Origin: Klebsiella phage Miami
Length of the DNA: 64,000 nucleotides
Reading direction: 5' to 3' (one strand)
Sequence record: MT701590.1
This document shows, piece by piece, positions 85 through 50,398 of this stretch. A program made the translations under genes and the position numbers. The notes beneath the pieces are model-generated. The model searched no databases. It was not told the origin of the DNA and worked only from the letters and a program-made list of their open reading frames with translations. Each line of letters opens with the position of its first letter. The first letter of the stretch is position 1.

Positions 85-3000
85 ATGAGCGTATTATACC
101 AACAGTTCTTCCGCAATTTTGTTCTTAGGAAAAAACAAGAAATTACAAATCCTAAGTTTCACCATCTGACGGATATGGTGTTGCCGAGAGAATCGGTAAT
201 GATGTATCTACCGAAGACGCAAGAAGATATCGGCCCGAGTACCGAGGAGCCCTTAATAGGGACTTACCCTGATGGGGTTAACATTTATTTCAACAGTCTT
301 TATATAACCCCCATCGGAAGAACTCGACCCGTTCCCTTTAACGAAAAGCAATCTATACAGCTTTATCGTAAAAGCCATTTCAAATACAACTGGGCGAGGA
401 CGTTGTCCAACTACCTGAGTCGTCGTCAGGAACTGTTGGTAAACAACATAGCGATGGGACCTCATCGTCACCGTTATGTCTTTACTCGCTTTGTTCAGTT
501 CGAACGAGCTTACAACCAACTGGCTTCTGGGATTGAAGCGGTTAAACAAATGAGTAAGGAAACGACCCGCCATCAATACTGGCGAATAGAACTTCCTCCA
601 GCCATCCCCGATTATCGTCAGCTACTGGTAGCAGTCGATCATTATAAGAAGGCGTTCAAAGACGGCGTTTATACCACGACTGACAATCAGGCGGTACTCC
701 CGTTTAAGGGTTACGGTTCTTATTGGATCATGGACTGGTATCTCTTCTTGATAGGCGAAAAGAACTACAGTCTGTTTAATCGCTTAGATAAAGAAGAAAT
801 GGATAAACTCCACATCATCTTTAGTCATAATGGACTCAGCTGGGTAGTTAACCTTGGTATCGTCTCTCAATGGATGGAAGAACTTAACGACAAGCACGGC
901 AATCCCACCAGTATGCGTGTTAACGCGGCTAAACGGTTCCTGCTTGGATTTAGGGCTCTGATAGCGGGCGGCACGCTAAGTGAAACCATAGAGGAGAAAC
1001 CTCATGCCGCAGAGAATGTCGGATTGGGTACTGGAACGCCAGAAGAGGAAAGAAGAAGCCAGGAAGTTAATAAGGAATCAGAAGAAGAACCGCTGGATCT
1101 CGATGAGTCTGAAGAGATTACTGATCAGTCTGTTACTATGCTTGATCTTTTCATGGGCAGCAAAAAGGCTGATACAGAATCTGATGATGACCAAGGAGGA
1201 GAGGATTCAGGAGGAGCTGATGAGAATCACGGAGAAGAGTGGGCTGCAGCGGTCGACGATGAATTACTTTATAACGCCGAAACAGAAGGACTAGGGGAAA
1301 CCAAGAAAGTTATTTTCAGTACCCCGGAATCTGGCATCCTGAGAGCCTTAGAGCAAAGAGCCAAGGCCGGGACATTAACTGTTGCGGAACAACGTTATTA
1401 CACTAATCTCGCGCAATCATACAAAACAATCAAAATGCCTAACGGTGAAAGTCTTGAAAGTTTTGTTAAGATCGATCAGGCCAAACTCCGCCACCTTCCT
1501 GCTAAAATTGCTCCTGAGATGAGAGGGATCATCGACCCTTCTCAGCTACAAAGTAGAGCGACAAATCTTAAAACGAAATACTCTGAAGAATTCCTTAACC
1601 GGGATATCGCCGGGATGATTCTTAACATTCAGAACGCCGGTATCGTTTTAACCGACCTGAAACGTGAACGTATCGTCAATGCGGAATCGGCTTACGACGT
1701 TTATACCATGAACGTTCATCCTGTTGGCGGATCGCCTAAGACCGCAATGTTCCGTATCCCCAAAATTGACAAAGACGGAACCTTCACTGTCGATGGGGTA
1801 AAACAACATCTTCAACTTCAGCGTATGGAAATACCGATTCGTAAGATAAACTCGGAGCAGGTTGCTTTGACGAGTTATTATGACCGCAAGATCATGATGT
1901 CTCGTTCTACCAAGGTCGCCGACGATTACGGATTGTGGCTGAACAAGCAGCTTATTCTGTTGGGCGAAGCCGGTAAAGTATCCGGGGTGTTGGGCGATGT
2001 CTATAATCGTAGTTACGCTGTTCCTCGTACTTATTCTGCGTTAGCCAAACGGTATCGGTCATTAAAGGCGGGTGGGATTGAATTCAACTTCGATCTTTCT
2101 AGTCTTGTTGGATCAGAGAAAGAAATCAATAAGCTGATTTCTCCTAACTGGGTTCCGGTGGCTAAAGAAGGTGACGACTTCATCTTTATGGATGATGGCG
2201 GTAACCTTTATAAAGATAAGACACACATTGGTTCTTTCGAAAGCCGCTGTGGAATTGACACGACGAAAGCCCCAGTCGATATCGTTACGGTGAATGTAAA
2301 CGGATACGCCTTCCCTATCGGGGTAGTGCTGGCTTACTACTTCGGATTCGACGAACTTCTTAAAGCACTCAATGCTGACTATCGGACCGTTCCGGCCGGT
2401 GAGAAAGTTCGGATGGGTCAGGACGAATACGCGATAACCTTTAACGATGAAACGCTCATTTTCAACAGACGGGATAGTTTAACCGCACTCATTATGGGTG
2501 GGTTCCGGAAGTTAGCGAATTTGAGTAACTTCTCTCGTTATGACCTAAACACGAAAGGTGTGTGGGTGCCGGCTATCGGGGATAAGAAAGTCAAACCGGG
2601 TCATTTTGATGAAATGCGTTTGATGTTCGAAATGTTCATCGATCCTATCACCAAATCTGAACTGGTTAAAAGGGGTTATCCGACCGAGCTTCATTATCTC
2701 ATGATCGAAGGCGTCAAAATGCTGAACACCGATCGGACTGCTCACGAGATAGAATTAACTGAGCAACGTTTCGTTGGGTATGAACGTTTCGCCGGTCGGG
2801 TCTATAACGAAATTGTTAAGTCGACTCGTCAATTCAGGAATAAAGGTAATGACAAACGTTTCACCTTCGATATGAACCCTGAAGCGGTTATCATGAGTAT
2901 CATCACCGATACAAGTGTAAACCTAGTCGAAGAGGTTAACCCCATCCACGAAATCAAAGAACAGGAAGTTGTTACCTTTGGTGGTACTGGTGGGCGAAGT

Positions 3001-4341
3001 GAAACGACAATGGTCAGACGTACACGTGGTCAGCAAGAGAACTATGCTGGGGTTATCTCCGAGGCTGGTAAAGACTCCGGTAAAGTTGGGTTCGTGAGTT
3101 ACTTAACGAGCAACCCTAAGATCGCCGATTTCCGTGGTAACGTCGACCTAAGCATGCCTGACACTCTGAGCGGCAGACTGTCGGTAACATCCAACCTTTT
3201 AGCTCACTCGACCTCCGATGACCCCAAACGTGCTCTGTTCTCCGGGGTACAGCAAAGCCAGGGGGTATCTGCGACTAACTATCAGACCAACTGGTTACGC
3301 ACAGGGGATGAGCTGGTTATCGCACACCGGACATCTGAGCTTTATTCTAAACCGGCTAAACTCGACGGTAAAGTAATAAAGCTTACCAAAGAAGGTTTAG
3401 TGGTCGAATACAAGGATGGAACGACGGACAGCTATCCGTTAGGCTTGACTATCGGTAGTGCGTCTGGTGAATTCCACAGACACACAAGGGTTACCGATTT
3501 AAAAGTCGGCGATAGTTTCAACGCCGGAGACATTATCGGTTGGGATGAAATGTACTTTGAAAGGGATTTGGCTAACCCTAATCAGGTCGCGTGGAAATGC
3601 GGGGTAATGGTGAGGATTGCCTTTGTTGAGAATCAGTTCACGTTTGAAGACTCCATTGAGGTTTCTAAAGACTTCGCTGAGCAGACGAAAACGCCTTATT
3701 TGAAGTTGAAAGAATTCTCTTTAGACTTCGAACAAACTCTCGTCCCTCACGTAGAAGTCGGGTCGGAAGTCGACATGGACGCGATTTTATGCTCGATAGA
3801 GGATCCCCACGTAAGTGGTCTGGACGATTCTGATGACACTTTCTCAGGATTAGAGCGTTTAGGGGTTAAACAAATTCGGTCTAACCATCATGGCCGTGTT
3901 GTTAAAATTGAGTGTGTTTATAACGGTTCAATTGAAGACATGTCAGATAGCCTGAAAGGGTTTGTGACTAAGTTAGATAAAGAACGTCAACAGCTCAATA
4001 AGGTCACTCATACCGGGATCGTTAACGGTAACGTTGGGGGAAACACGTATGTTAAGAAAGCCAGTGTTGAACCTAATCGGGTTACGGTTAAAATCTTTAT
4101 TGAGGATCTCAATAGCTCCGAAACCGCCGATAAATTTGTAGTCGGTAACCAGATGAAAGGCACCGTGGGGAATATCGTGAACTACACAATGCGCACACTG
4201 GATGGCCGTATTGTCAAGATTCGATTCTCATTTAAATCGATGTTCAACCGTATGGTTCTGAGCTTACGAGATAAAATGGGTATCAATGAAGTTAACGCCA
4301 ACCGCACTTCGGCAGCAGTTAAAGCTTTCAGAGGAAAATAA
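85..4341 (+). CDS. phage multisubunit RNA polymerase beta-like subunit (phiKZ-type split RNAP; large acidic insertion)
   Basis: 1418-aa ORF. Motif TFGGTGGRSETTMVRR...ISEAGKDSGKVGF resembles bacterial beta GPGGLTRERAGFEVRDVHP..ETPEGPNIGL. Near the C-terminus ADKFVVGNQMKGTVGNI resembles beta GDKMAGRHGNKGVIS. ORF ends ~65 aa after this motif, consistent with a split beta. Confidence 0.55.
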   Translation: MSVLYQQFFRNFVLRKKQEITNPKFHHLTDMVLPRESVMMYLPKTQEDIGPSTEEPLIGTYPDGVNIYFNSLYITPIGRTRPVPFNEKQSIQLYRKSHFKYNWARTLSNYLSRRQELLVNNIAMGPHRHRYVFTRFVQFERAYNQLASGIEAVKQMSKETTRHQYWRIELPPAIPDYRQLLVAVDHYKKAFKDGVYTTTDNQAVLPFKGYGSYWIMDWYLFLIGEKNYSLFNRLDKEEMDKLHIIFSHNGLSWVVNLGIVSQWMEELNDKHGNPTSMRVNAAKRFLLGFRALIAGGTLSETIEEKPHAAENVGLGTGTPEEERRSQEVNKESEEEPLDLDESEEITDQSVTMLDLFMGSKKADTESDDDQGGEDSGGADENHGEEWAAAVDDELLYNAETEGLGETKKVIFSTPESGILRALEQRAKAGTLTVAEQRYYTNLAQSYKTIKMPNGESLESFVKIDQAKLRHLPAKIAPEMRGIIDPSQLQSRATNLKTKYSEEFLNRDIAGMILNIQNAGIVLTDLKRERIVNAESAYDVYTMNVHPVGGSPKTAMFRIPKIDKDGTFTVDGVKQHLQLQRMEIPIRKINSEQVALTSYYDRKIMMSRSTKVADDYGLWLNKQLILLGEAGKVSGVLGDVYNRSYAVPRTYSALAKRYRSLKAGGIEFNFDLSSLVGSEKEINKLISPNWVPVAKEGDDFIFMDDGGNLYKDKTHIGSFESRCGIDTTKAPVDIVTVNVNGYAFPIGVVLAYYFGFDELLKALNADYRTVPAGEKVRMGQDEYAITFNDETLIFNRRDSLTALIMGGFRKLANLSNFSRYDLNTKGVWVPAIGDKKVKPGHFDEMRLMFEMFIDPITKSELVKRGYPTELHYLMIEGVKMLNTDRTAHEIELTEQRFVGYERFAGRVYNEIVKSTRQFRNKGNDKRFTFDMNPEAVIMSIITDTSVNLVEEVNPIHEIKEQEVVTFGGTGGRSETTMVRRTRGQQENYAGVISEAGKDSGKVGFVSYLTSNPKIADFRGNVDLSMPDTLSGRLSVTSNLLAHSTSDDPKRALFSGVQQSQGVSATNYQTNWLRTGDELVIAHRTSELYSKPAKLDGKVIKLTKEGLVVEYKDGTTDSYPLGLTIGSASGEFHRHTRVTDLKVGDSFNAGDIIGWDEMYFERDLANPNQVAWKCGVMVRIAFVENQFTFEDSIEVSKDFAEQTKTPYLKLKEFSLDFEQTLVPHVEVGSEVDMDAILCSIEDPHVSGLDDSDDTFSGLERLGVKQIRSNHHGRVVKIECVYNGSIEDMSDSLKGFVTKLDKERQQLNKVTHTGIVNGNVGGNTYVKKASVEPNRVTVKIFIEDLNSSETADKFVVGNQMKGTVGNIVNYTMRTLDGRIVKIRFSFKSMFNRMVLSLRDKMGINEVNANRTSAAVKAFRGK

Positions 4342-42559: not shown

Positions 42560-44572
42560 ATGTCCGACAATCAAAATGGCAACAACTGGGAACAAACCGT
42601 CCTGAACACCGCTGCTGGTAAAGGAGAGCCGATCGTCTCTGCTTCTGCCGAGAATTTCGGTTCTCAGCTGCTCGGTCTGCTCGGCCAGGCTTCTCTTCTG
42701 GGTTCTTCCAAGAACGTGCCGGAAGTAGAAGAAACCGCGGCCCTGATCAAGAAACGCGTAACCGATCTGAAAAACGGTACGCCGGGCGAAACCCAGAAGA
42801 AGATCCTGCCGGAAGTGAACATCATCACCAAACCGATCATCTCTGCACTGCCGGGCATCGTGCTCTCCCTGCACATGAACAACAACCCTGCGGTATACGT
42901 CATGCCGGTGCTGTTCTCTAACCGTCATCTGACCAATACCCTGGAAGAGATCCAGATCGACAACGGCGTTAACCAACAGCGCAAAATGTCCATGCCGTTT
43001 ACCCCTGATTCCTACGCTCGTGCTGATCTGTTCGAACAGATCAAAATGCACTACAAAGCGATGCTCCAGGATAAAGGTGTGAGCGAATGCGTGATCATCA
43101 ACGTGATGGTTATCGACCTGGAACAGATCGTTGGTGACGATGTCCTGAATCAGGGCAAATCGCCGCTGCTGCGTGATGAAATCATGCGTAGCTGGGAACA
43201 GGGTCTGATGGTACAGATCGCGAAAATCGCAGCCAACCAGCCGAAAGCTTCTCTGCCTTCTCCGTTCTCTGCGACCGGTGGCAAAGCCTATGGTCAGCAC
43301 GGTAATGCGATTGCTCGCGTTGAACCGATCCGCGGTCAGTATGTTAACGAAGGCCTGCTGTCTCCGGCGAACCTGACCATCCGCATGCAAACTGCTAACC
43401 ATAACGGTTATCAGGGTAACGCGGAACAGTCCCGTGAAATCGTCAACACCTACGCGACCGTTAGCCTGATGGGTTCTCCGATCCAGCAGTTCAACCCGCA
43501 GCTGACCGGTAACATTCCGCAGCCGTACCTGCAGACCCCTAACGGTCGTCCTCAGGGCTACACCCCGCTGCAGCCGGTGGTTATTATGAACCACGCTAAA
43601 GCTGGCGAAGTGCTGGGCGATGCGACTGGCCTGTCGACCTACTTCATGGGTCTGTTCTCTCTGATGGCGACCAACAGCAACTACCTGTTTGCTGAAGCTC
43701 TGCGTTCTAAGAACGTAGGTTCTCGTGGCTCCCTGACTGATATGGAACACCGCATCCGTCAGATGGAAAATGGATTACCTCCGCGCACTAAGGGTACTGA
43801 GATGACCGACGCTAAACTGTCGGATATCGATTTCACCACTAACTGGATTCGCGCCAATATTGGACCTAAAGCAGTCTTTGCTGCTGACCTGATCCAGTTT
43901 GGCCCGGATGCGGCAATCTCCAACTTCCTGTTCAACCTCACTCCCGGTGCGAAAGACTACATCAAATGCGTGAAAACCGTTATTGCTATCGTCGACTCCA
44001 TCTCCGGTGATGCGAAAGCCATGTCTGCGGTTATCGCAGAAAACCAGGCCAACAACAATGCCAATGGCGGATGGATTCCGGGCAAACCGGTGCTGCACGT
44101 TTCTAACGCGCTGATCCCAGTCGGTACTTCTGTACTGGATAACAAACGCATTGCGCTCGGCGAAGTGGACGAGATGTTCCTGTCCAAGCACTATAAAGAT
44201 CAGGTCGCCCCGATGAACCAGTACCTGGAAAACATGTACGGGTCTAACCCGAACGTTCCGGAAAAACTGCGTCGCTACAATCTGTTGATCCAGCTGTCCA
44301 CCATCTTCTCTGAAGGTGTAAACCTGTTCGGCTTCGCTCGTCGTTGCTACTGGGATCCGCTGTTCATGGATGCGTTCACTAAAGCGATGAACACCATCGG
44401 TTCTCTGCAGGTTACTGGCTCTATGGGTCAGTTCGCTGCTAACGTTCAGGTCTTCGCTCCTGGCCAGCAGTATATCTCTCAGGCAACTGCTGGTAACTCC
44501 GGTGGCGTCGTTCTGGGTAACGGTATGATGCTGGGTGCAGGTGGCGGTCTGGTGTTTGGCCCGTCCTACTAA
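42560..44572 (+). CDS. highly expressed 670-aa protein; candidate chimallin (phage nucleus shell protein)
   Basis: Strongest codon bias in the window (ctg, ccg, ggt, cgt, aac). In phiKZ the nuclear shell protein gp54 sits directly upstream of the non-virion RNAP beta'-N gene gp55, as here. Size is in the chimallin range. A major capsid protein cannot be excluded. Confidence 0.45.
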   Translation: MSDNQNGNNWEQTVLNTAAGKGEPIVSASAENFGSQLLGLLGQASLLGSSKNVPEVEETAALIKKRVTDLKNGTPGETQKKILPEVNIITKPIISALPGIVLSLHMNNNPAVYVMPVLFSNRHLTNTLEEIQIDNGVNQQRKMSMPFTPDSYARADLFEQIKMHYKAMLQDKGVSECVIINVMVIDLEQIVGDDVLNQGKSPLLRDEIMRSWEQGLMVQIAKIAANQPKASLPSPFSATGGKAYGQHGNAIARVEPIRGQYVNEGLLSPANLTIRMQTANHNGYQGNAEQSREIVNTYATVSLMGSPIQQFNPQLTGNIPQPYLQTPNGRPQGYTPLQPVVIMNHAKAGEVLGDATGLSTYFMGLFSLMATNSNYLFAEALRSKNVGSRGSLTDMEHRIRQMENGLPPRTKGTEMTDAKLSDIDFTTNWIRANIGPKAVFAADLIQFGPDAAISNFLFNLTPGAKDYIKCVKTVIAIVDSISGDAKAMSAVIAENQANNNANGGWIPGKPVLHVSNALIPVGTSVLDNKRIALGEVDEMFLSKHYKDQVAPMNQYLENMYGSNPNVPEKLRRYNLLIQLSTIFSEGVNLFGFARRCYWDPLFMDAFTKAMNTIGSLQVTGSMGQFAANVQVFAPGQQYISQATAGNSGGVVLGNGMMLGAGGGLVFGPSY

Positions 44573-44643: not shown

Positions 44644-46074
44644 GTGAACGGAGACGTTATGGATCAGTACGGTGATCGTATTATTGATGCATTAACAGCG
44701 CCTGAATTTTCATCATTGCAACCAGAGGCTCAGTTTAAAACTTATGCCGAACAATACGGTGGTGACCTTTCTGACGACAAACGTTTTTATGAACCCCTTT
44801 ATCCCGACTTCACTGACTATAACCGTTTGCATGATACTGCTAAGGTCGATCCGGTTTACCTGAACGATTTCGATTTTTGTTTGGAAGAAGACCGAGAACG
44901 AATCGCATCTTTGATTCGTATGGACTTCAACACCGACACATTCGAAACCGTCGCGAGATGTAGCTGTGGGCATCTGAAGGGCAACTATTTGTTGGGTCAG
45001 AAAAGATCATGTCCCATCTGTCAATCCCTTGTAGAGAAAGTCGTAGAGACTTCCTTAGATACTAAGGTATGGGTCAGGGTTCCAGAAGGTGTAGTTGGAT
45101 TTATCAGTCCGGCTTATTACAAAACCTTCTTATCGAAGATCGCGACCAATTCTCCAAAGATTGAGATCGTGACTTGGCTCATCGATCCGTCTTATCGTCG
45201 GGGTAGTCGGGCTCAGCATACTGAGTCTGGTCGTCGGATGTTGGCTGAACTCGATAAACTCGGAATAGTCCCCGGGCTTAACAGCTTTATATTGAACGCG
45301 GACAGATTCATGGAACACTTCCTTGTTGGTGAAGGAAGAGGTGCTGTGAGCATGAAGCCGGCTGATGGTAAAAAGCATTTGGATAAGTATTACGAATATC
45401 GTCATCTTATCTTCCCGCGCTATTTGTCCGTACCCAATAAACTCGCCACCATCATCGAGCAAGATGGTAAAGATAAGTACGTTTCTTCAACCCAATTGAA
45501 AACCTCGGCAATCTACCAATCTATTGCAGATACGAGAGATTCTACTGAGTTTTATAAATGTACGATTAAGGATCTTAAGGAGAACGCTGATATCGTCGGG
45601 AAGGCGATAGTTCGATTAGGTAAGCAGAACTCTGATAACTATAAGAGTCAGCTGTTTGCTAAATCGAGCCTGATACGTAAACACGTAATCGCGGGATCGT
45701 TATCTTTATCAGGTCGTGGTGTTATCACATCAACGACTGGGTTGCATGATGCCGGTGTTGCTAAGATACCTTGGATCATGGCAGTGGCTATGCTGAAGAA
45801 ACACATCCTGGGATATCTTTACCGTTTAGGGTACAGCCCCCTGAAAGCCGAAAGTGTAATCAGTACAGCAGCACACCAAGTCGTCCCGGTAATCGATCAA
45901 TTCTTTACCAAGCACGAAAAGCAAAAAGACATTGTCTGCATTTTAGGAAGAAACCCATCAATTCAGTACCTGTCAGCAAAAGCCTTCTTCATGTCGATCA
46001 ACCGAGATTTAGAAGACGAGTCGATAAACTTACCAATACTCTCAGTTAAAACCTTTAATGCTGACTTCGACGGT
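44644..46074 (+). CDS. RNA polymerase beta' N-terminal subunit, exon 1 (ends inside the catalytic NADFDG|D motif)
   Basis: Zn-finger CSCGHLKGNYLLGQKRSCPICQSL. Exon ends ...FNADFDG at 46074. The track ORF continues KRVAVHKFL* into the intron. The codon count to NADFDG (~471-476) matches the E. coli beta' position (458-464). Possible alternative ATG start at 44659. Confidence 0.55.
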
Positions 46075-47489
46075 AAACGTGTTGCCGTCCATAAATTTCT
46101 CTAACTGCTGGAACACCCTAAAGCTCGTTTAGCTACAACGTAATCCGCAAGGATAACCGTGAATGCGGTCGAAAGACAGAAAAAATAAACGAGATGATCT
46201 ATGCTTAATATCTTGATTAAGGATTTAATTGAGTGCTAAGGATTTCTAATGGGCGATCAGCATCGAAGCTTCCTTATGGGAAGAACGTTCAACGACTAAA
46301 TACATCGAATTCGTGATGTTAACGGGAAAGCAGCTTACAGGATGTGACTGCAAGATATAGTCTCAACCGGTGCGAAAGTGTCGGATAGCAAATGCTCTAG
46401 CCAGGCATTTGCTCTTGGATTAACGACCCAAGCAGCCTCTTTATTATGATCCTTTAAAATGAGAAAATTAATACCCGGAACTAAAAACTTCTATGCGGGT
46501 GACGACAATCAGATTTATGATTCTGAAGGAGTCCCTAGAAAACAATATGTGAATGGTGACGGTTACAAAACAGCTTCCGTTCTATTGGAAGACGGAAGAT
46601 GGGTAACCTTTGGAGTTCAGCGTTTAGTCGCCATGGCCTTCAAAAAGACCGACGTACCATTTGCTTTACTAACAGTCAACCACATCGATAAAGTTAAATG
46701 GAATAACACTCCGCCTAATTTGGAATGGGTGTCGAATAAGCATAACGTTATTCACGCTATTCTCCTTAATAAGAAATCTTTGAGGCCTTTAATTTCTTGC
46801 GAGAAAGATAACGAAAGTTTCTTTTTAGCGGATATCTATGATGCTGTTATCCATTTTGATTCAGACGTTGAATCAGTTTGGGGAGCTATCAGAGACGGTA
46901 AAGAAATTGATGGGTGGAAAATTTCCTACATTAAGGCCTCTGATAAAAGAAACCAGAGGATTATAGTGAAGGCCCCTAAGGAAAGATCTGGCCATGAAAG
47001 GCCGTTGACTATGATGGATGTGGAAACAGGAAATATTAAAGAATTTTCTTCCATTAAAGAAGCCGCGAGCCATTTCTCTGTCTTAATAACCCATATCCGG
47101 ATTAGAATTTCCACTCCAGGATATCCTAAGGTTTTTAGGGGGAGATATGTTTTCGTAGATAAGGGAGAGAGTTTTGATTTTCTAAATGAGGAGGTATTGG
47201 GAAGATTAAAAAGAACAGCGCCGAAACAGGTGTTAGCTTATAATTTGGAAACGTCGACTTTTCGGACGTATGATTCGGCTCGATCGTTTATTCAAAATAA
47301 TAAGCTCAGTAAAAAAGCAGTCTCGGTGAGACTGAAGAAAGAAAAATTGGAATCGGTTTCCGGTTGGTTATTTAAATACCAAACCGCTAATCCAGATTCT
47401 GATAAGAAAGCATTATTAGAGATGGCTAGATCTCTCTTAGTGTAGGAACATATGAGGCGATAAAACCGGTTAATCCGGACAATGCGAAG
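46075..47489 (+). ncRNA. group I intron (IA2-like, T4 td-like core) carrying an HNH homing endonuclease ORF
   Basis: P1: exon end gacggU pairs with internal guide gccgtc at 46084-89, with a U.G wobble. P7 strands gacta (46294-98) and tagtc (46358-62) sit in R/S-like elements caacgactaaata and caagatatagtct (identical 11-mer to td AGATATAGTCT). P9 hairpins gcaaatgc..gcatttgc and cttgg..ccaag. Candidate omega-G at 47489. A 4-bp P10 is possible (exon-2 gaca with intron tgtt). Confidence 0.55.
46459..47445 (+). CDS. HNH homing endonuclease (intron-encoded)
   Basis: TVNHIDKVKWNNTPPNLEWVSNKHN is an HNH/HNH_3 motif; N-terminal GDDNQIYDSEG..VNGDGYKTASV is an NUMOD-like region. Gene is AT-rich relative to its flanks. 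Confidence 0.7.
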   Translation: MRKLIPGTKNFYAGDDNQIYDSEGVPRKQYVNGDGYKTASVLLEDGRWVTFGVQRLVAMAFKKTDVPFALLTVNHIDKVKWNNTPPNLEWVSNKHNVIHAILLNKKSLRPLISCEKDNESFFLADIYDAVIHFDSDVESVWGAIRDGKEIDGWKISYIKASDKRNQRIIVKAPKERSGHERPLTMMDVETGNIKEFSSIKEAASHFSVLITHIRIRISTPGYPKVFRGRYVFVDKGESFDFLNEEVLGRLKRTAPKQVLAYNLETSTFRTYDSARSFIQNNKLSKKAVSVRLKKEKLESVSGWLFKYQTANPDSDKKALLEMARSLLV

Positions 47490-47678
47490 GACACTATGTA
47501 CTGTTATGTATTGAGTGATTTGAAAGGTAAGGCCAAAGCGTATGGGTCGTTCGGTCATCAGTCCATGCTTGATGAAAACGAACCATTTACAATAAGTCGA
47601 TTTGCTGATCAAACTTCAACGAATTTGATGAACCTCAACAACATGATGAGAGGAACACCAATCAATGAATGCGGCTGA
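47490..47678 (+). CDS. RNA polymerase beta' N-terminal subunit, exon 2 (proposed)
   Basis: Begins D TMYCYVLSDL (compare E. coli D QMAVHVPLTL). Contains TNLMNLNNMMRGTPI (compare ALMMSTNNILSPANGEPI). Ends ...INECG*. An alternative 3' splice site lies at 47478. Confidence 0.35.
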   Translation, partial: DTMYCYVLSDLKGKAKAYGSFGHQSMLDENEPFTISRFADQTSTNLMNLNNMMRGTPINECG

Positions 47679-49073: not shown

Positions 49074-49124
49074 TTGACATGCAGATAATTATACATCGAT
49101 ATTATTTAGTCGGAGGAATTAAAT

Positions 49125-50261
49125 ATGTTTATTTCTAAACGAGGTAAGCTCCGACTACATAAAGATGATTTAGAAACAATCGAAAGAACTTTTGGTTGTC
49201 GGAGGTTTGTATGGAATCAGCTTTTAGGATTTCATAAAAATCAGTATGAAAAATGGAAAGAAGATTGTACTTTAGAGAAACCTAAAGTTTCTATTTCGGC
49301 TTTTAGAGAGGAATTTAAACGTCTTAAATTAACACACCCTTGGTTAAATGAAGTAAGCTCTATCGTTTTATATGAGACTATTACCGATCTTTATAATGCT
49401 TTTCAGGGTTTCTTTAAGAGCGGTAAAGGTTATCCTAAATTTAAATCTAAACGAGGGATGCAATCTTTTCGAATAGCTTCTCGATACAACATGCGTGTTT
49501 CAGGTAATCGAGTTAGGATACCTAAGTCGAATTACTACGCTAAGTTCTCTAAAAATACGGTTTTAAACGATCCTTCGTCATATACGGTCACTCGTGACAA
49601 CGTAGGAGATTATTTCATCTCTTTTGTAGACCAGATCGACGAGATCGAACAAGAGCCTGAAAGTAAAGGTAAGCACGTTGGTATTGATTTAGGGATTAAA
49701 TCTTTAGCGATTATCAACTCTAATAAAGGGGAGTCTTGGGAGTTAGAAAATCCCAAAACCTACGTCAAGTACCAAAAAAGGAGAACGACGCTACAACGTC
49801 GTTTAATGAAAAAGAAGAAAGGGAGTAACAATCGTAACAAAGCCAAAATTAAATTAGCAAAGTTAGAACGTAAAGTATCTAATATCCGTAAAGATCTTTT
49901 ACACAAATTTACCACTAAGATTATTCGTGAAAACCAAACCATAGTTTTAGAGGATTTAAACGTAAAAGGAATGGTTAAAAATCATAAACTGGCTAAACAT
50001 ATTCAAGATTGTTCTTTTGGTACGATTAGAACAATGTTAGAATATAAAGCTAAGCGTTATACCAAACCAAAAGTGATTTGTCTTGTTCATCGTTTTTATC
50101 CCAGTACTCAACTCTGTTCTCATTGTGGCATGAAAAGTGAAGTGAAAATCAAACTTCATATAAGAGAATGGACCTGTGGTCACTGTGGGGTTAAACACGA
50201 TAGAGATATCAATGCAGCTACGAATATCCTTAACGAAGGATGTCGTTTAACAGCCTCCTAG
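49125..50261 (+). CDS. tnpB: TnpB (IS200/IS605-family OrfB) RNA-guided nuclease-like protein
   Basis: N-terminal FGCRRFVWNQLL (OrfB helix-turn-helix). RuvC-I HVGIDLGIK, RuvC-II IVLEDLNVKGM, Zn-ribbon CSHCG..CGHCG, RuvC-III HDRDINAATNI — all catalytic D/E/D present. The gene is markedly AT-rich compared with neighbours. Confidence 0.75.
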   Translation: MFISKRGKLRLHKDDLETIERTFGCRRFVWNQLLGFHKNQYEKWKEDCTLEKPKVSISAFREEFKRLKLTHPWLNEVSSIVLYETITDLYNAFQGFFKSGKGYPKFKSKRGMQSFRIASRYNMRVSGNRVRIPKSNYYAKFSKNTVLNDPSSYTVTRDNVGDYFISFVDQIDEIEQEPESKGKHVGIDLGIKSLAIINSNKGESWELENPKTYVKYQKRRTTLQRRLMKKKKGSNNRNKAKIKLAKLERKVSNIRKDLLHKFTTKIIRENQTIVLEDLNVKGMVKNHKLAKHIQDCSFGTIRTMLEYKAKRYTKPKVICLVHRFYPSTQLCSHCGMKSEVKIKLHIREWTCGHCGVKHDRDINAATNILNEGCRLTAS

Positions 50262-50398
50262 GTTAAGGGTATTTAATTACCCCTACCCTTGGTCTGAGGG
50301 GACGTTAAGCCTGTGGAGCCGGGTTGCAGTTAGGACCCCCTATGAAACAGGAAATTGAAAAATATGAGACAGAATATTTTATTTATAAGGAATCTATT
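50262..50398 (+). other. TnpB 3' flank: candidate right end / omega-RNA scaffold region
   Basis: Hairpins gggta tttaat taccc and ccc..ggg-rich segments lie right after the tnpB stop, where IS605-family omega-RNAs end. Boundaries are not defined. Confidence 0.25.

Follow-up and report, generated by a model that had tools for sequence, protein, structure and literature searches.

In the stretch analysed here, 64,000 nucleotides of Klebsiella phage Miami (sequence record MT701590.1; the whole stretch is called the window and its positions are counted from the first letter), the gene for beta'-N of the non-virion multisubunit RNA polymerase (RNAP) breaks off inside NADFDGD, the motif of the beta' double-psi beta-barrel. 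The open reading frame (ORF) beginning with ATG 44659 runs to ...KTFNADFDG and then continues with KRVAVHKFL up to a stop codon at 46102-46104. How an intact catalytic loop can be obtained from a gene interrupted at this point is the question raised by the locus. The first-pass annotation, which had read this ORF end correctly, proposed a self-splicing group I intron with an HNH homing endonuclease, inserted directly after the GGT codon ending at 46074.

The present analysis makes it very probable that the beta'-N gene is interrupted by a mobile group I intron, which occupies the segment 46075-47489. This interpretation is carried by intron-less alleles in close relatives, by the protein restored when the segment is removed, by a covarying group I fold and by the family of the encoded endonuclease. 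The features are collected in Table 1; insertion points within codons and motifs are marked by a slash.

Boundaries of the insertion and identity of the interrupted gene

A megablast search against 50,697 phage records identified five relatives of about 252-257 kb which, together with the window phage, form a set of six phages 95-99% identical at the locus. Three of the six, Stenotrophomonas phage BUCTxx100 and Klebsiella phages KPN8 and YC1, lack exactly 46075-47489, the flanks being 96-99% identical; their gene is continuous (534 codons, junction ...AATGCTGACTTCGACGGC/GATACGATGTAT...) and exon 1 is collinear with it up to base 46074. Because such alleles exist, the insert is delimited to the nucleotide, and its ends coincide with the splice junctions 46074/46075 and 47489/47490 postulated earlier. 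Joining 44659-46074 to 47490-47678 in silico gives a protein identical in 534 of 534 residues to those of BUCTxx100, KPN8 and YC1. Intron-less alleles in related genomes had been set beforehand as a test of the proposal, and three phages thus supply them with a 100% identical spliced product. The motif NADFDGD is whole only once the two exons are joined: after G47489 the sequence GAC ACT ATG TAC... reads D-T-M-Y-C-Y-V, as anticipated, and restores NADFDG-D. The two remaining close relatives, phiKp_32 and VB_ZK_P1, carry other introns at the motif. As a separate observation, BUCTxx100 (OR529409) is 96-99% identical to Klebsiella phages over this locus and has an identical beta'-N protein; its host label may deserve a check.

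The exon 1 product matches Pfam RNA_pol_Rpb1_2 (26.3 bits). The spliced protein matches the phiKZ subunit in PDB 7OGP chain A with an E value of 4e-36, aligning to gp55/56.1 in agreement with the homology suggested in the first-pass annotation, and bacterial beta' chains with E of about 1e-5 in an alignment spanning NADFDGD. The upstream neighbour (42560-44572) belongs to phrog_4795 'nuclear shell protein' (chimallin; 2.9e-97), and the order chimallin, beta'-N is found also in phiKZ, HHBS8_1, FishSpeaker, VP4B and USC-1. The chimallin gene directly upstream therefore indicates a nucleus-forming jumbo phage, in which the interrupted gene, judged by sequence, is the orthologue of phiKZ gp55, beta'-N of the non-virion RNAP. 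The ORF had been delimited correctly in the earlier reading except for its start: the initiation codon is most likely ATG 44659 rather than GTG 44644, because four of the five relatives have their annotated start at the corresponding ATG, and only in KPN8 does the annotation use the equivalent of 44644.

Alternatively, the gene could be split or pseudogenised and never spliced, the products being a fragment ending in DFDG-KRVAVHKFL and a 60-aa peptide (from ATG 47496, ending at 47678), with either two catalytic Asp residues or another gene copy in use. Jumbo-phage RNAP genes are indeed naturally divided among several polypeptides (PMC7598289), and in GenBank records of related phages the pieces have been entered as ORFs of their own. 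The third Asp would nevertheless be lost, because its codon (47490-47492) comes before the sole start codon available to the small ORF. In addition, the relatives encode an uninterrupted protein, a complete group I fold supported by covariation is present in the insert together with canonical splice-site nucleotides (see below), and the structure of the phiKZ non-virion RNAP uses a fused gp55/gp56.1 chain, to which the native 56-kDa subunit corresponds in size. A split gene is accordingly regarded as very improbable, and the intron reading is followed further.

Table 1. Features of the interrupted beta'-N locus and of related introns
Feature	Coordinates	Strand	Description
Exon 1, non-virion RNAP beta'-N	44659-46074	+	472 codons, end ...FNADFDG, final codon GGT; ORF list
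Group I intron including endonuclease ORF	46075-47489	+	1415 nt, IA-type architecture, between GGT (Gly) and GAC (Asp) of NADFDG/D
P1 hairpin	46069-46089	+	exon GACGGU and intron AA (46075-46076) paired with internal guide UUGCCGUC; Rfam alignment
Catalytic core	46096-46384	+	cmscan alignment, RNAalifold, pair counts
P3	46096-46101 with 46324-46329	+	
P4	46106-46111 with 46257-46262	+	
P7	46294-46298 with 46358-46362	+	GACUA with UAGUC
P7.1-like hairpin	between P7 and P3'	+	
P8	46330-46351	+	
P9	46367-46384	+	
3' peripheral hairpins	46387-46439	+	AGCAAAUGC with GCAUUUGCU; CUUGG with CCAAG, loop AUUAACGA; GCCUC 5' arm 46435-46439
Intron ORF	46459-47445	+	328-aa HNH homing endonuclease (I-HmuI type, HNH_3 and NUMOD1); Pfam, PHROG, PDB
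Intron 3' tail	47446-47489	+	GAGGC 47454-47458, hairpin CCGG-UUAAU-CCGG, conserved ACAAUG, terminal G47489 (omega-G)
Exon 2, non-virion RNAP beta'-N	47490-47678	+	62 codons and stop; D-T-M-Y-C-Y-V..., third catalytic Asp
Recoded exon flank	46074-47530	+	12 silent differences from intron-less alleles: -1 (GGC>GGT) and +2 to +41 (47491-47530)
Predicted junction peptide of spliced beta'-N			TFNADFDGDTMY, TFNADFDGDTMYCYVLSDLK; C-terminus of unspliced product DFDGKRVAVHKFL
B-type introns (256-311 nt)	L003 3297-3607; L002 4362-4672		VB_ZK_P1; phiKp_32
B-type introns, further loci	L012 2493-2750; L013 2418-2674; L014 520-775; L015 518-775		

Ribozyme fold and splice sites

The sole Rfam match at E<=0.01 across the window is RF00028, at 46065-46384 (42.9 bits). 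Its E value is 3.9e-9 for a 1.8-kb segment and 1.4e-7 for the window as a whole, well above what chance would give. In P1 the exon sequence GACGGT (46069-46074) with the following AA pairs with TTGCCGTC (46082-46089), GCCGTC beginning at intron nucleotide 10. The U.G wobble at the 5' splice site, suggested previously, is formed by U46074 and G46084 and is invariant in all seven aligned introns; helix P1 as a whole is 91% paired over the seven homologues. The base at -1 is C in the intron-less alleles (GGC) and T in the window (GGT), which is the change the ribozyme needs, because it gives the U for the U.G pair. In the alignment to the Rfam group I model, the R- and S-like elements recognized in the first-pass annotation fall at J6/7-P7 (CAACGACTAAATA / GUUCAACGACUA) and at J8/7-P7' (CAAGATATAGTCT / AAGAUAUAGUCU). 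The architecture is of the IA type, as indicated by the hairpin that lies between P7 and P3'.

The fold was scored on the seven aligned intron cores as a P1-P9 structure of 82 pairs including the P3/P7 pseudoknot. In this alignment 92.2% of cells are paired and 41 of the 82 pairs are compensatory, with changes on both sides (4/6 in P3, 2/5 in P7); none of 500 shuffles was as good, and slid controls reached 36-41% paired. Towards the 3' end, GCCUC at 46435-46439 pairs with GAGGC at 47454-47458 in the minimum free energy fold of the ORF-deleted 3' region, bracketing the ORF. A module of the form hairpin-ACAAU-N(3-8)-G closes the homologous introns at loci L003 (VB_ZK_P1) and L006-L011, and every homologous intron has U at -1 and G at its 3' end. 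A candidate P10 is formed by exon 2 GACAC (47490-47494) with GUGUU (46079-46083) in the P1 loop; it covaries in HHBS8_1 (GAUUC with GAAUU), is convincing for the window, HHBS8_1 and FishSpeaker (three of six homologues) as well as for the B-type introns described below, and is suggestive of a role in positioning exon 2.

Removal of the insert by another route, i.e. as an intein, as a group II intron or through translational bypassing, has nothing specific in its favour and is given practically no weight: an intein is incompatible with the in-frame stops that begin 10 codons into the insert, and Rfam gives no match to a group II intron or to any other family, with the group I features all present.

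The intron-encoded HNH endonuclease

The ORF lies, as claimed, in the 3' domain beyond P9-type hairpins. Its start follows P9 and two more hairpins, so placed that the ribozyme core is uninterrupted; a peripheral 3' position is usual for such ORFs. Both Pfam domains score above their cutoffs (HNH_3 27.3 bits against 24.8, NUMOD1 26.2 against 22.8), and the protein matches PHROG 59 'HNH endonuclease' at 8.5e-23 and I-HmuI (PDB 1U3E) at E 3.7e-5. The HNH motif of the window, VNHIDKVKWNNTPPNLEWV, aligns with VDHKDGNKDNNLSTNLRWV of I-HmuI, the positions of the motif His and Asn being identical. We take these to be the catalytic residues. Full-length alignment gives 51% identity between the window protein and the HNH protein at the same place in the HHBS8_1 intron, which indicates purifying selection; to that of the USC-1 intron the window protein is 36% identical.

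Several points weigh against the interpretation as a whole. In the covariance check recommended in the first-pass annotation, the RF00028 score of the window lies below the gathering score of 50. The P10 pairing is weak in VP4B, USC-1 and ACP1. Self-splicing is predicted from structure, and a long-read transcriptome of phiKZ gave no evidence of self-splicing at gp56, gp72 and gp179 under its conditions (PMC10914365). No clear Shine-Dalgarno sequence lies before the ATG of the HNH ORF (46459). The 328-aa protein is an I-HmuI-like HNH endonuclease by family, and its activity and target are likewise presumed from the family.

With these reservations the following course of events may be proposed. 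The pre-mRNA would fold as a group I ribozyme, in which the last base of exon 1, U46074, is held in P1 by the wobble pair with the guide UUGCCGUC. An external guanosine would attack at the 5' splice site after U46074, and the freed 3'-OH of exon 1 would then attack after G47489, exon 2 being probably positioned by P10. The ligated mRNA would encode the 534-aa protein with the Mg2+-binding loop NADFDGD intact. The endonuclease would be made from the 328-aa ORF, which loops out from a peripheral stem in the 3' region. By analogy with I-HmuI and gp210 of PhiPA3 it could nick, close to the insertion site, an allele without the intron in a relative infecting the same cell, and recombinational repair would copy the intron with some of the flanking exon. 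The activity and specificity of the enzyme, as well as ongoing homing, are assumed by this analogy.

Same-site introns of further jumbo phages

When the intron core was used as the query for blastn in distant mode, homologues turned up in the beta'-N gene of jumbo phages from four other genera. The site GGT/GAY is identical in Pseudomonas phage HHBS8_1, Shewanella phage FishSpeaker, Vibrio phages VP4B and USC-1, and in the second intron of Aeromonas phage ACP1, where RF00028 scores 39.9-72.5 bits, above the gathering score in three of the five. The cores of the introns of HHBS8_1/HHBS47_1, USC-1, VP4B, FishSpeaker and ACP1 (intron 2) are 69-77% identical in nucleotides to that of the window, and they share with it the DFDG/D site and the internal guide UUGCCGU(C/G), whereas the beta'-N proteins of the host phages are only 36-54% identical to that of the window. 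The HNH ORF occupies the same 3' position in HHBS8_1 and USC-1. Unlike the window, the introns of VP4B and FishSpeaker and intron 2 of ACP1 show no HNH-sized ORF in the annotation; the ORF-less introns of VP4B and FishSpeaker keep the modules that flank the ORF position. None of the same-site homologues has been annotated as an intron.

Since its P1 resembles intron B and its core intron A of phiKp_32 and VB_ZK_P1, which carry two introns each, an origin of the window intron by recombination between A and B was considered. We rejected it because its closest same-site relatives in other genera already combine this P1 with this core.

Other insertion sites, tandem introns and the B-type family

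At least four insertion positions are found within 15 nt of the motif. Introns lie at N/A in phiKZ (L011 9170-10538), at NA/D in EL, phiKp_32 and VB_ZK_P1, at NAD/F in PDCC-1, ACP1 and PS1, and at DFDG/D in many phages; even close relatives differ in the site occupied, the EL-like HHBS8_1 at DFDG/D and EL at NA/D. Tandem introns in phiKp_32 (L002 2920-4672) and VB_ZK_P1 (L003 2920-3607) leave between them a mini-exon of 12 nt, GATTTTGACGGT (DFDG). Intron A, after NA, gives RF00028 scores of 58.6 and 63.8 bits in the two phages, respectively, and is followed by a 311-nt intron B at DFDG/D. After removal of both introns the phiKp_32 protein is identical to that of the window and the VB_ZK_P1 protein matches it in 530 of 534 residues. 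Intron A of phiKp_32 (L002 2920-4000) has a 339-aa HNH ORF (2961-3980) in the P1 loop, bracketed by an 11-nt inverted repeat (AGAAGTGAGAG and CTCTCACTTCT), and intron A of VB_ZK_P1 is without an ORF; the ORF itself is therefore present or absent between relatives. In ACP1 (L008, about 2012-2880) two tandem RF00028 matches (43.8 and 46.6 bits) surround a 9-nt mini-exon, TTCGACGGT (FDG), the first intron being at NAD/F and the second at DFDG/D. PS1 is arranged in the same way, its second intron containing an HNH ORF.

The B-type introns always occupy DFDG/D. In Klebsiella/Raoultella phages the gene concerned is that for beta' of the non-virion RNAP, in Aeromonas phages that for beta' of the virion RNAP. 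RF00028 gave no match to them (the second intron of VB_ZK_P1 and its relatives in Aeromonas phages) even at E<=10. They have U at -1, a terminal G and a P1 with U.G, and 26 of 70 pairs covary, the candidate P3 and P7 being invariant; the B-type family is probably group I.

Recoding of the exon flank and probable mobility of the intron

The window differs from the intron-less alleles at 12 positions between -1 and +41 of the junction, all of them synonymous, where about one difference would be expected; the clustering has a P value of about 1e-8 after correction for window position. Eleven of the 12 changes fall in exon 2. The action of I-HmuI-type nickases lies on the side of the 3' exon, and the asymmetry would agree with this. 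Although phiKp_32 and VB_ZK_P1 have another intron at DFDG/D, they carry the exon-2 haplotype of the window except for the P10 partner bases, and the haplotype thus follows occupancy of the site and not intron lineage, the three empty alleles sharing the alternative one. The tract may have arisen by co-conversion or by successive replacement of introns, or else the empty alleles may have been recoded for resistance. A donor search with a degenerate pattern for the window intron at the window site returned only six IMG/VR contigs, and no donor of the exon-2 haplotype was identified, the pattern search finding no exon 2 in four of these six. The G+C contents at third codon positions of the two haplotypes (6/14 and 9/14) were uninformative. 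No further copies of either intron family were detected by nhmmer within the window.

The intron might still splice but have lost its mobility and be inherited vertically, with the HNH protein inactive, unexpressed or deprived of cleavable targets. The lack of a clear ribosome-binding site upstream of ATG 46459 and the presence of the exact HNH protein on only one other public contig would be in line with this, and the 11 silent differences in the probable recognition region could make the intron-less relatives resistant. We consider such an immobile intron unlikely, though worth keeping in mind, as the ORF is not truncated and agrees with I-HmuI at the His and Asn of the HNH motif, the whole-length identity to the HHBS8_1 orthologue indicates purifying selection, and presence or absence of the intron among phages about 98% identical argues for its recent gain or loss. 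An intron that is still mobile is therefore the preferred reading.

Comparison with known systems

Introns in RNAP genes of chimalliviruses are established (PMC11512511, PMC11620839). In phiKZ (gp55/gp56/gp56.1) the orthologous gene, also located beside the chimallin gene, is interrupted in the same NADFDGD codons by an intron (RF00028 75.6 bits) that includes an HNH ORF (gp56), as in the window. Introns in gp55 and gp180 of phiKZ are mentioned in a passage of PMC11512511 citing Ceyssens 2014 and Mesyanzhinov 2002. Our attribution of the gp55 intron rests on that citation and on the name of PDB 7OGP chain A ('PHIKZ055 ... PHIKZ056.1'), whose sequence reads ...NADFDGDQLN...; this spliced protein is the functional subunit, and the native gp55 of 56 kDa fits the spliced size. 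The systems differ in that the phiKZ site, read from the DNA, is AAT/GCT (N/ADFDGD), 12 nt upstream of GGT/GAC, in that the phiKZ HNH ORF is at the intron's 5' end rather than in the 3' region, and in that the two HNH proteins are only 31% identical over about 100 aa. The novelty ascribed in the first-pass annotation to an intron in the catalytic loop was hence overestimated: the window element is not new in kind and constitutes an additional, unannotated case of the phiKZ-like arrangement.

In PhiPA3 the I-HmuI-like HNH protein gp210 nicks the phiKZ homologue and gives a competitive advantage (Birkholz et al. 2024, Science; PMC11620839). Its intron, like that of the window, is a putative group I intron in a chimallivirus multisubunit RNAP gene directly beside conserved Asp residues of the catalytic region, but it interrupts beta of the virion RNAP and not beta' of the non-virion RNAP, and the nicking and advantage are experimental, whereas the function of the window HNH protein is a prediction. 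The I-HmuI intron of Bacillus phage SPO1 resembles that of the window in its HNH nicking family and in being a group I intron of a large lytic phage by which an essential polymerase gene is interrupted; it sits in the DNA polymerase gene, and I-HmuI has 174 aa as compared with 328 aa for the window protein, which has extra NUMOD1-type C-terminal modules.

Annotation of related records and a neighbouring element

In each of the GenBank records LC768500, PV662128, PQ287644, OP589283, PP601403, NC_042136, NC_048779, NC_007623 and NC_004629 the beta'-N gene with its interruption appears as a truncated protein and a small separate ORF, and the feature tables examined contain no intron. The beta' homologue in these nine records is often labelled 'hypothetical protein' or 'RNA polymerase beta subunit'.

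A second insertion, of about 1.27 kb (49106-50371), is absent from all five close relatives. It contains a 378-aa ORF of the TnpB / IS605 OrfB type (49125-50261; OrfB_IS605 1.8e-29, Cas12f1-like TNB 5.2e-20) and by sequence looks like a transposase-less TnpB element that entered the phage recently.

Significance

The 21-nt NADFDGD sequence of chimallivirus RNAP beta' genes can tentatively be viewed as a contested hot spot, in which the HNH intron of the window would act as an interference weapon and the exon-2 changes as resistance; we regard this as possible without favouring it. It is based on at least two ribozyme lineages, one of them invisible to Rfam and located at DFDG/D in virion and non-virion paralogues, and on at least four phages whose tandem introns leave a 9- or 12-nt mini-exon encoding catalytic Asp residues. 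Our literature search found no paper pairing 'group I intron' with 'NADFDGD' and no phage paper on mini-exons between group I introns. If the view were true, the mini-exon would have to serve two successive ribozymes at once, the first as its 3' exon and the second as its 5' exon, the target of the HNH intron would be the intron-less Klebsiella relatives, and their 11 silent changes in exon 2 would represent evolved resistance.

As long as the intron is not recognized, the catalytic subunit of the late RNAP is miscalled as a truncated protein and a 60-aa ORF. Three intron-less relatives about 98% identical to the window phage at this locus, together with two carrying different introns at the motif, form a ready natural system with a Klebsiella-type host, suited to the study of homing, co-conversion and endonuclease-mediated interference competition as described for PhiPA3 and phiKZ.

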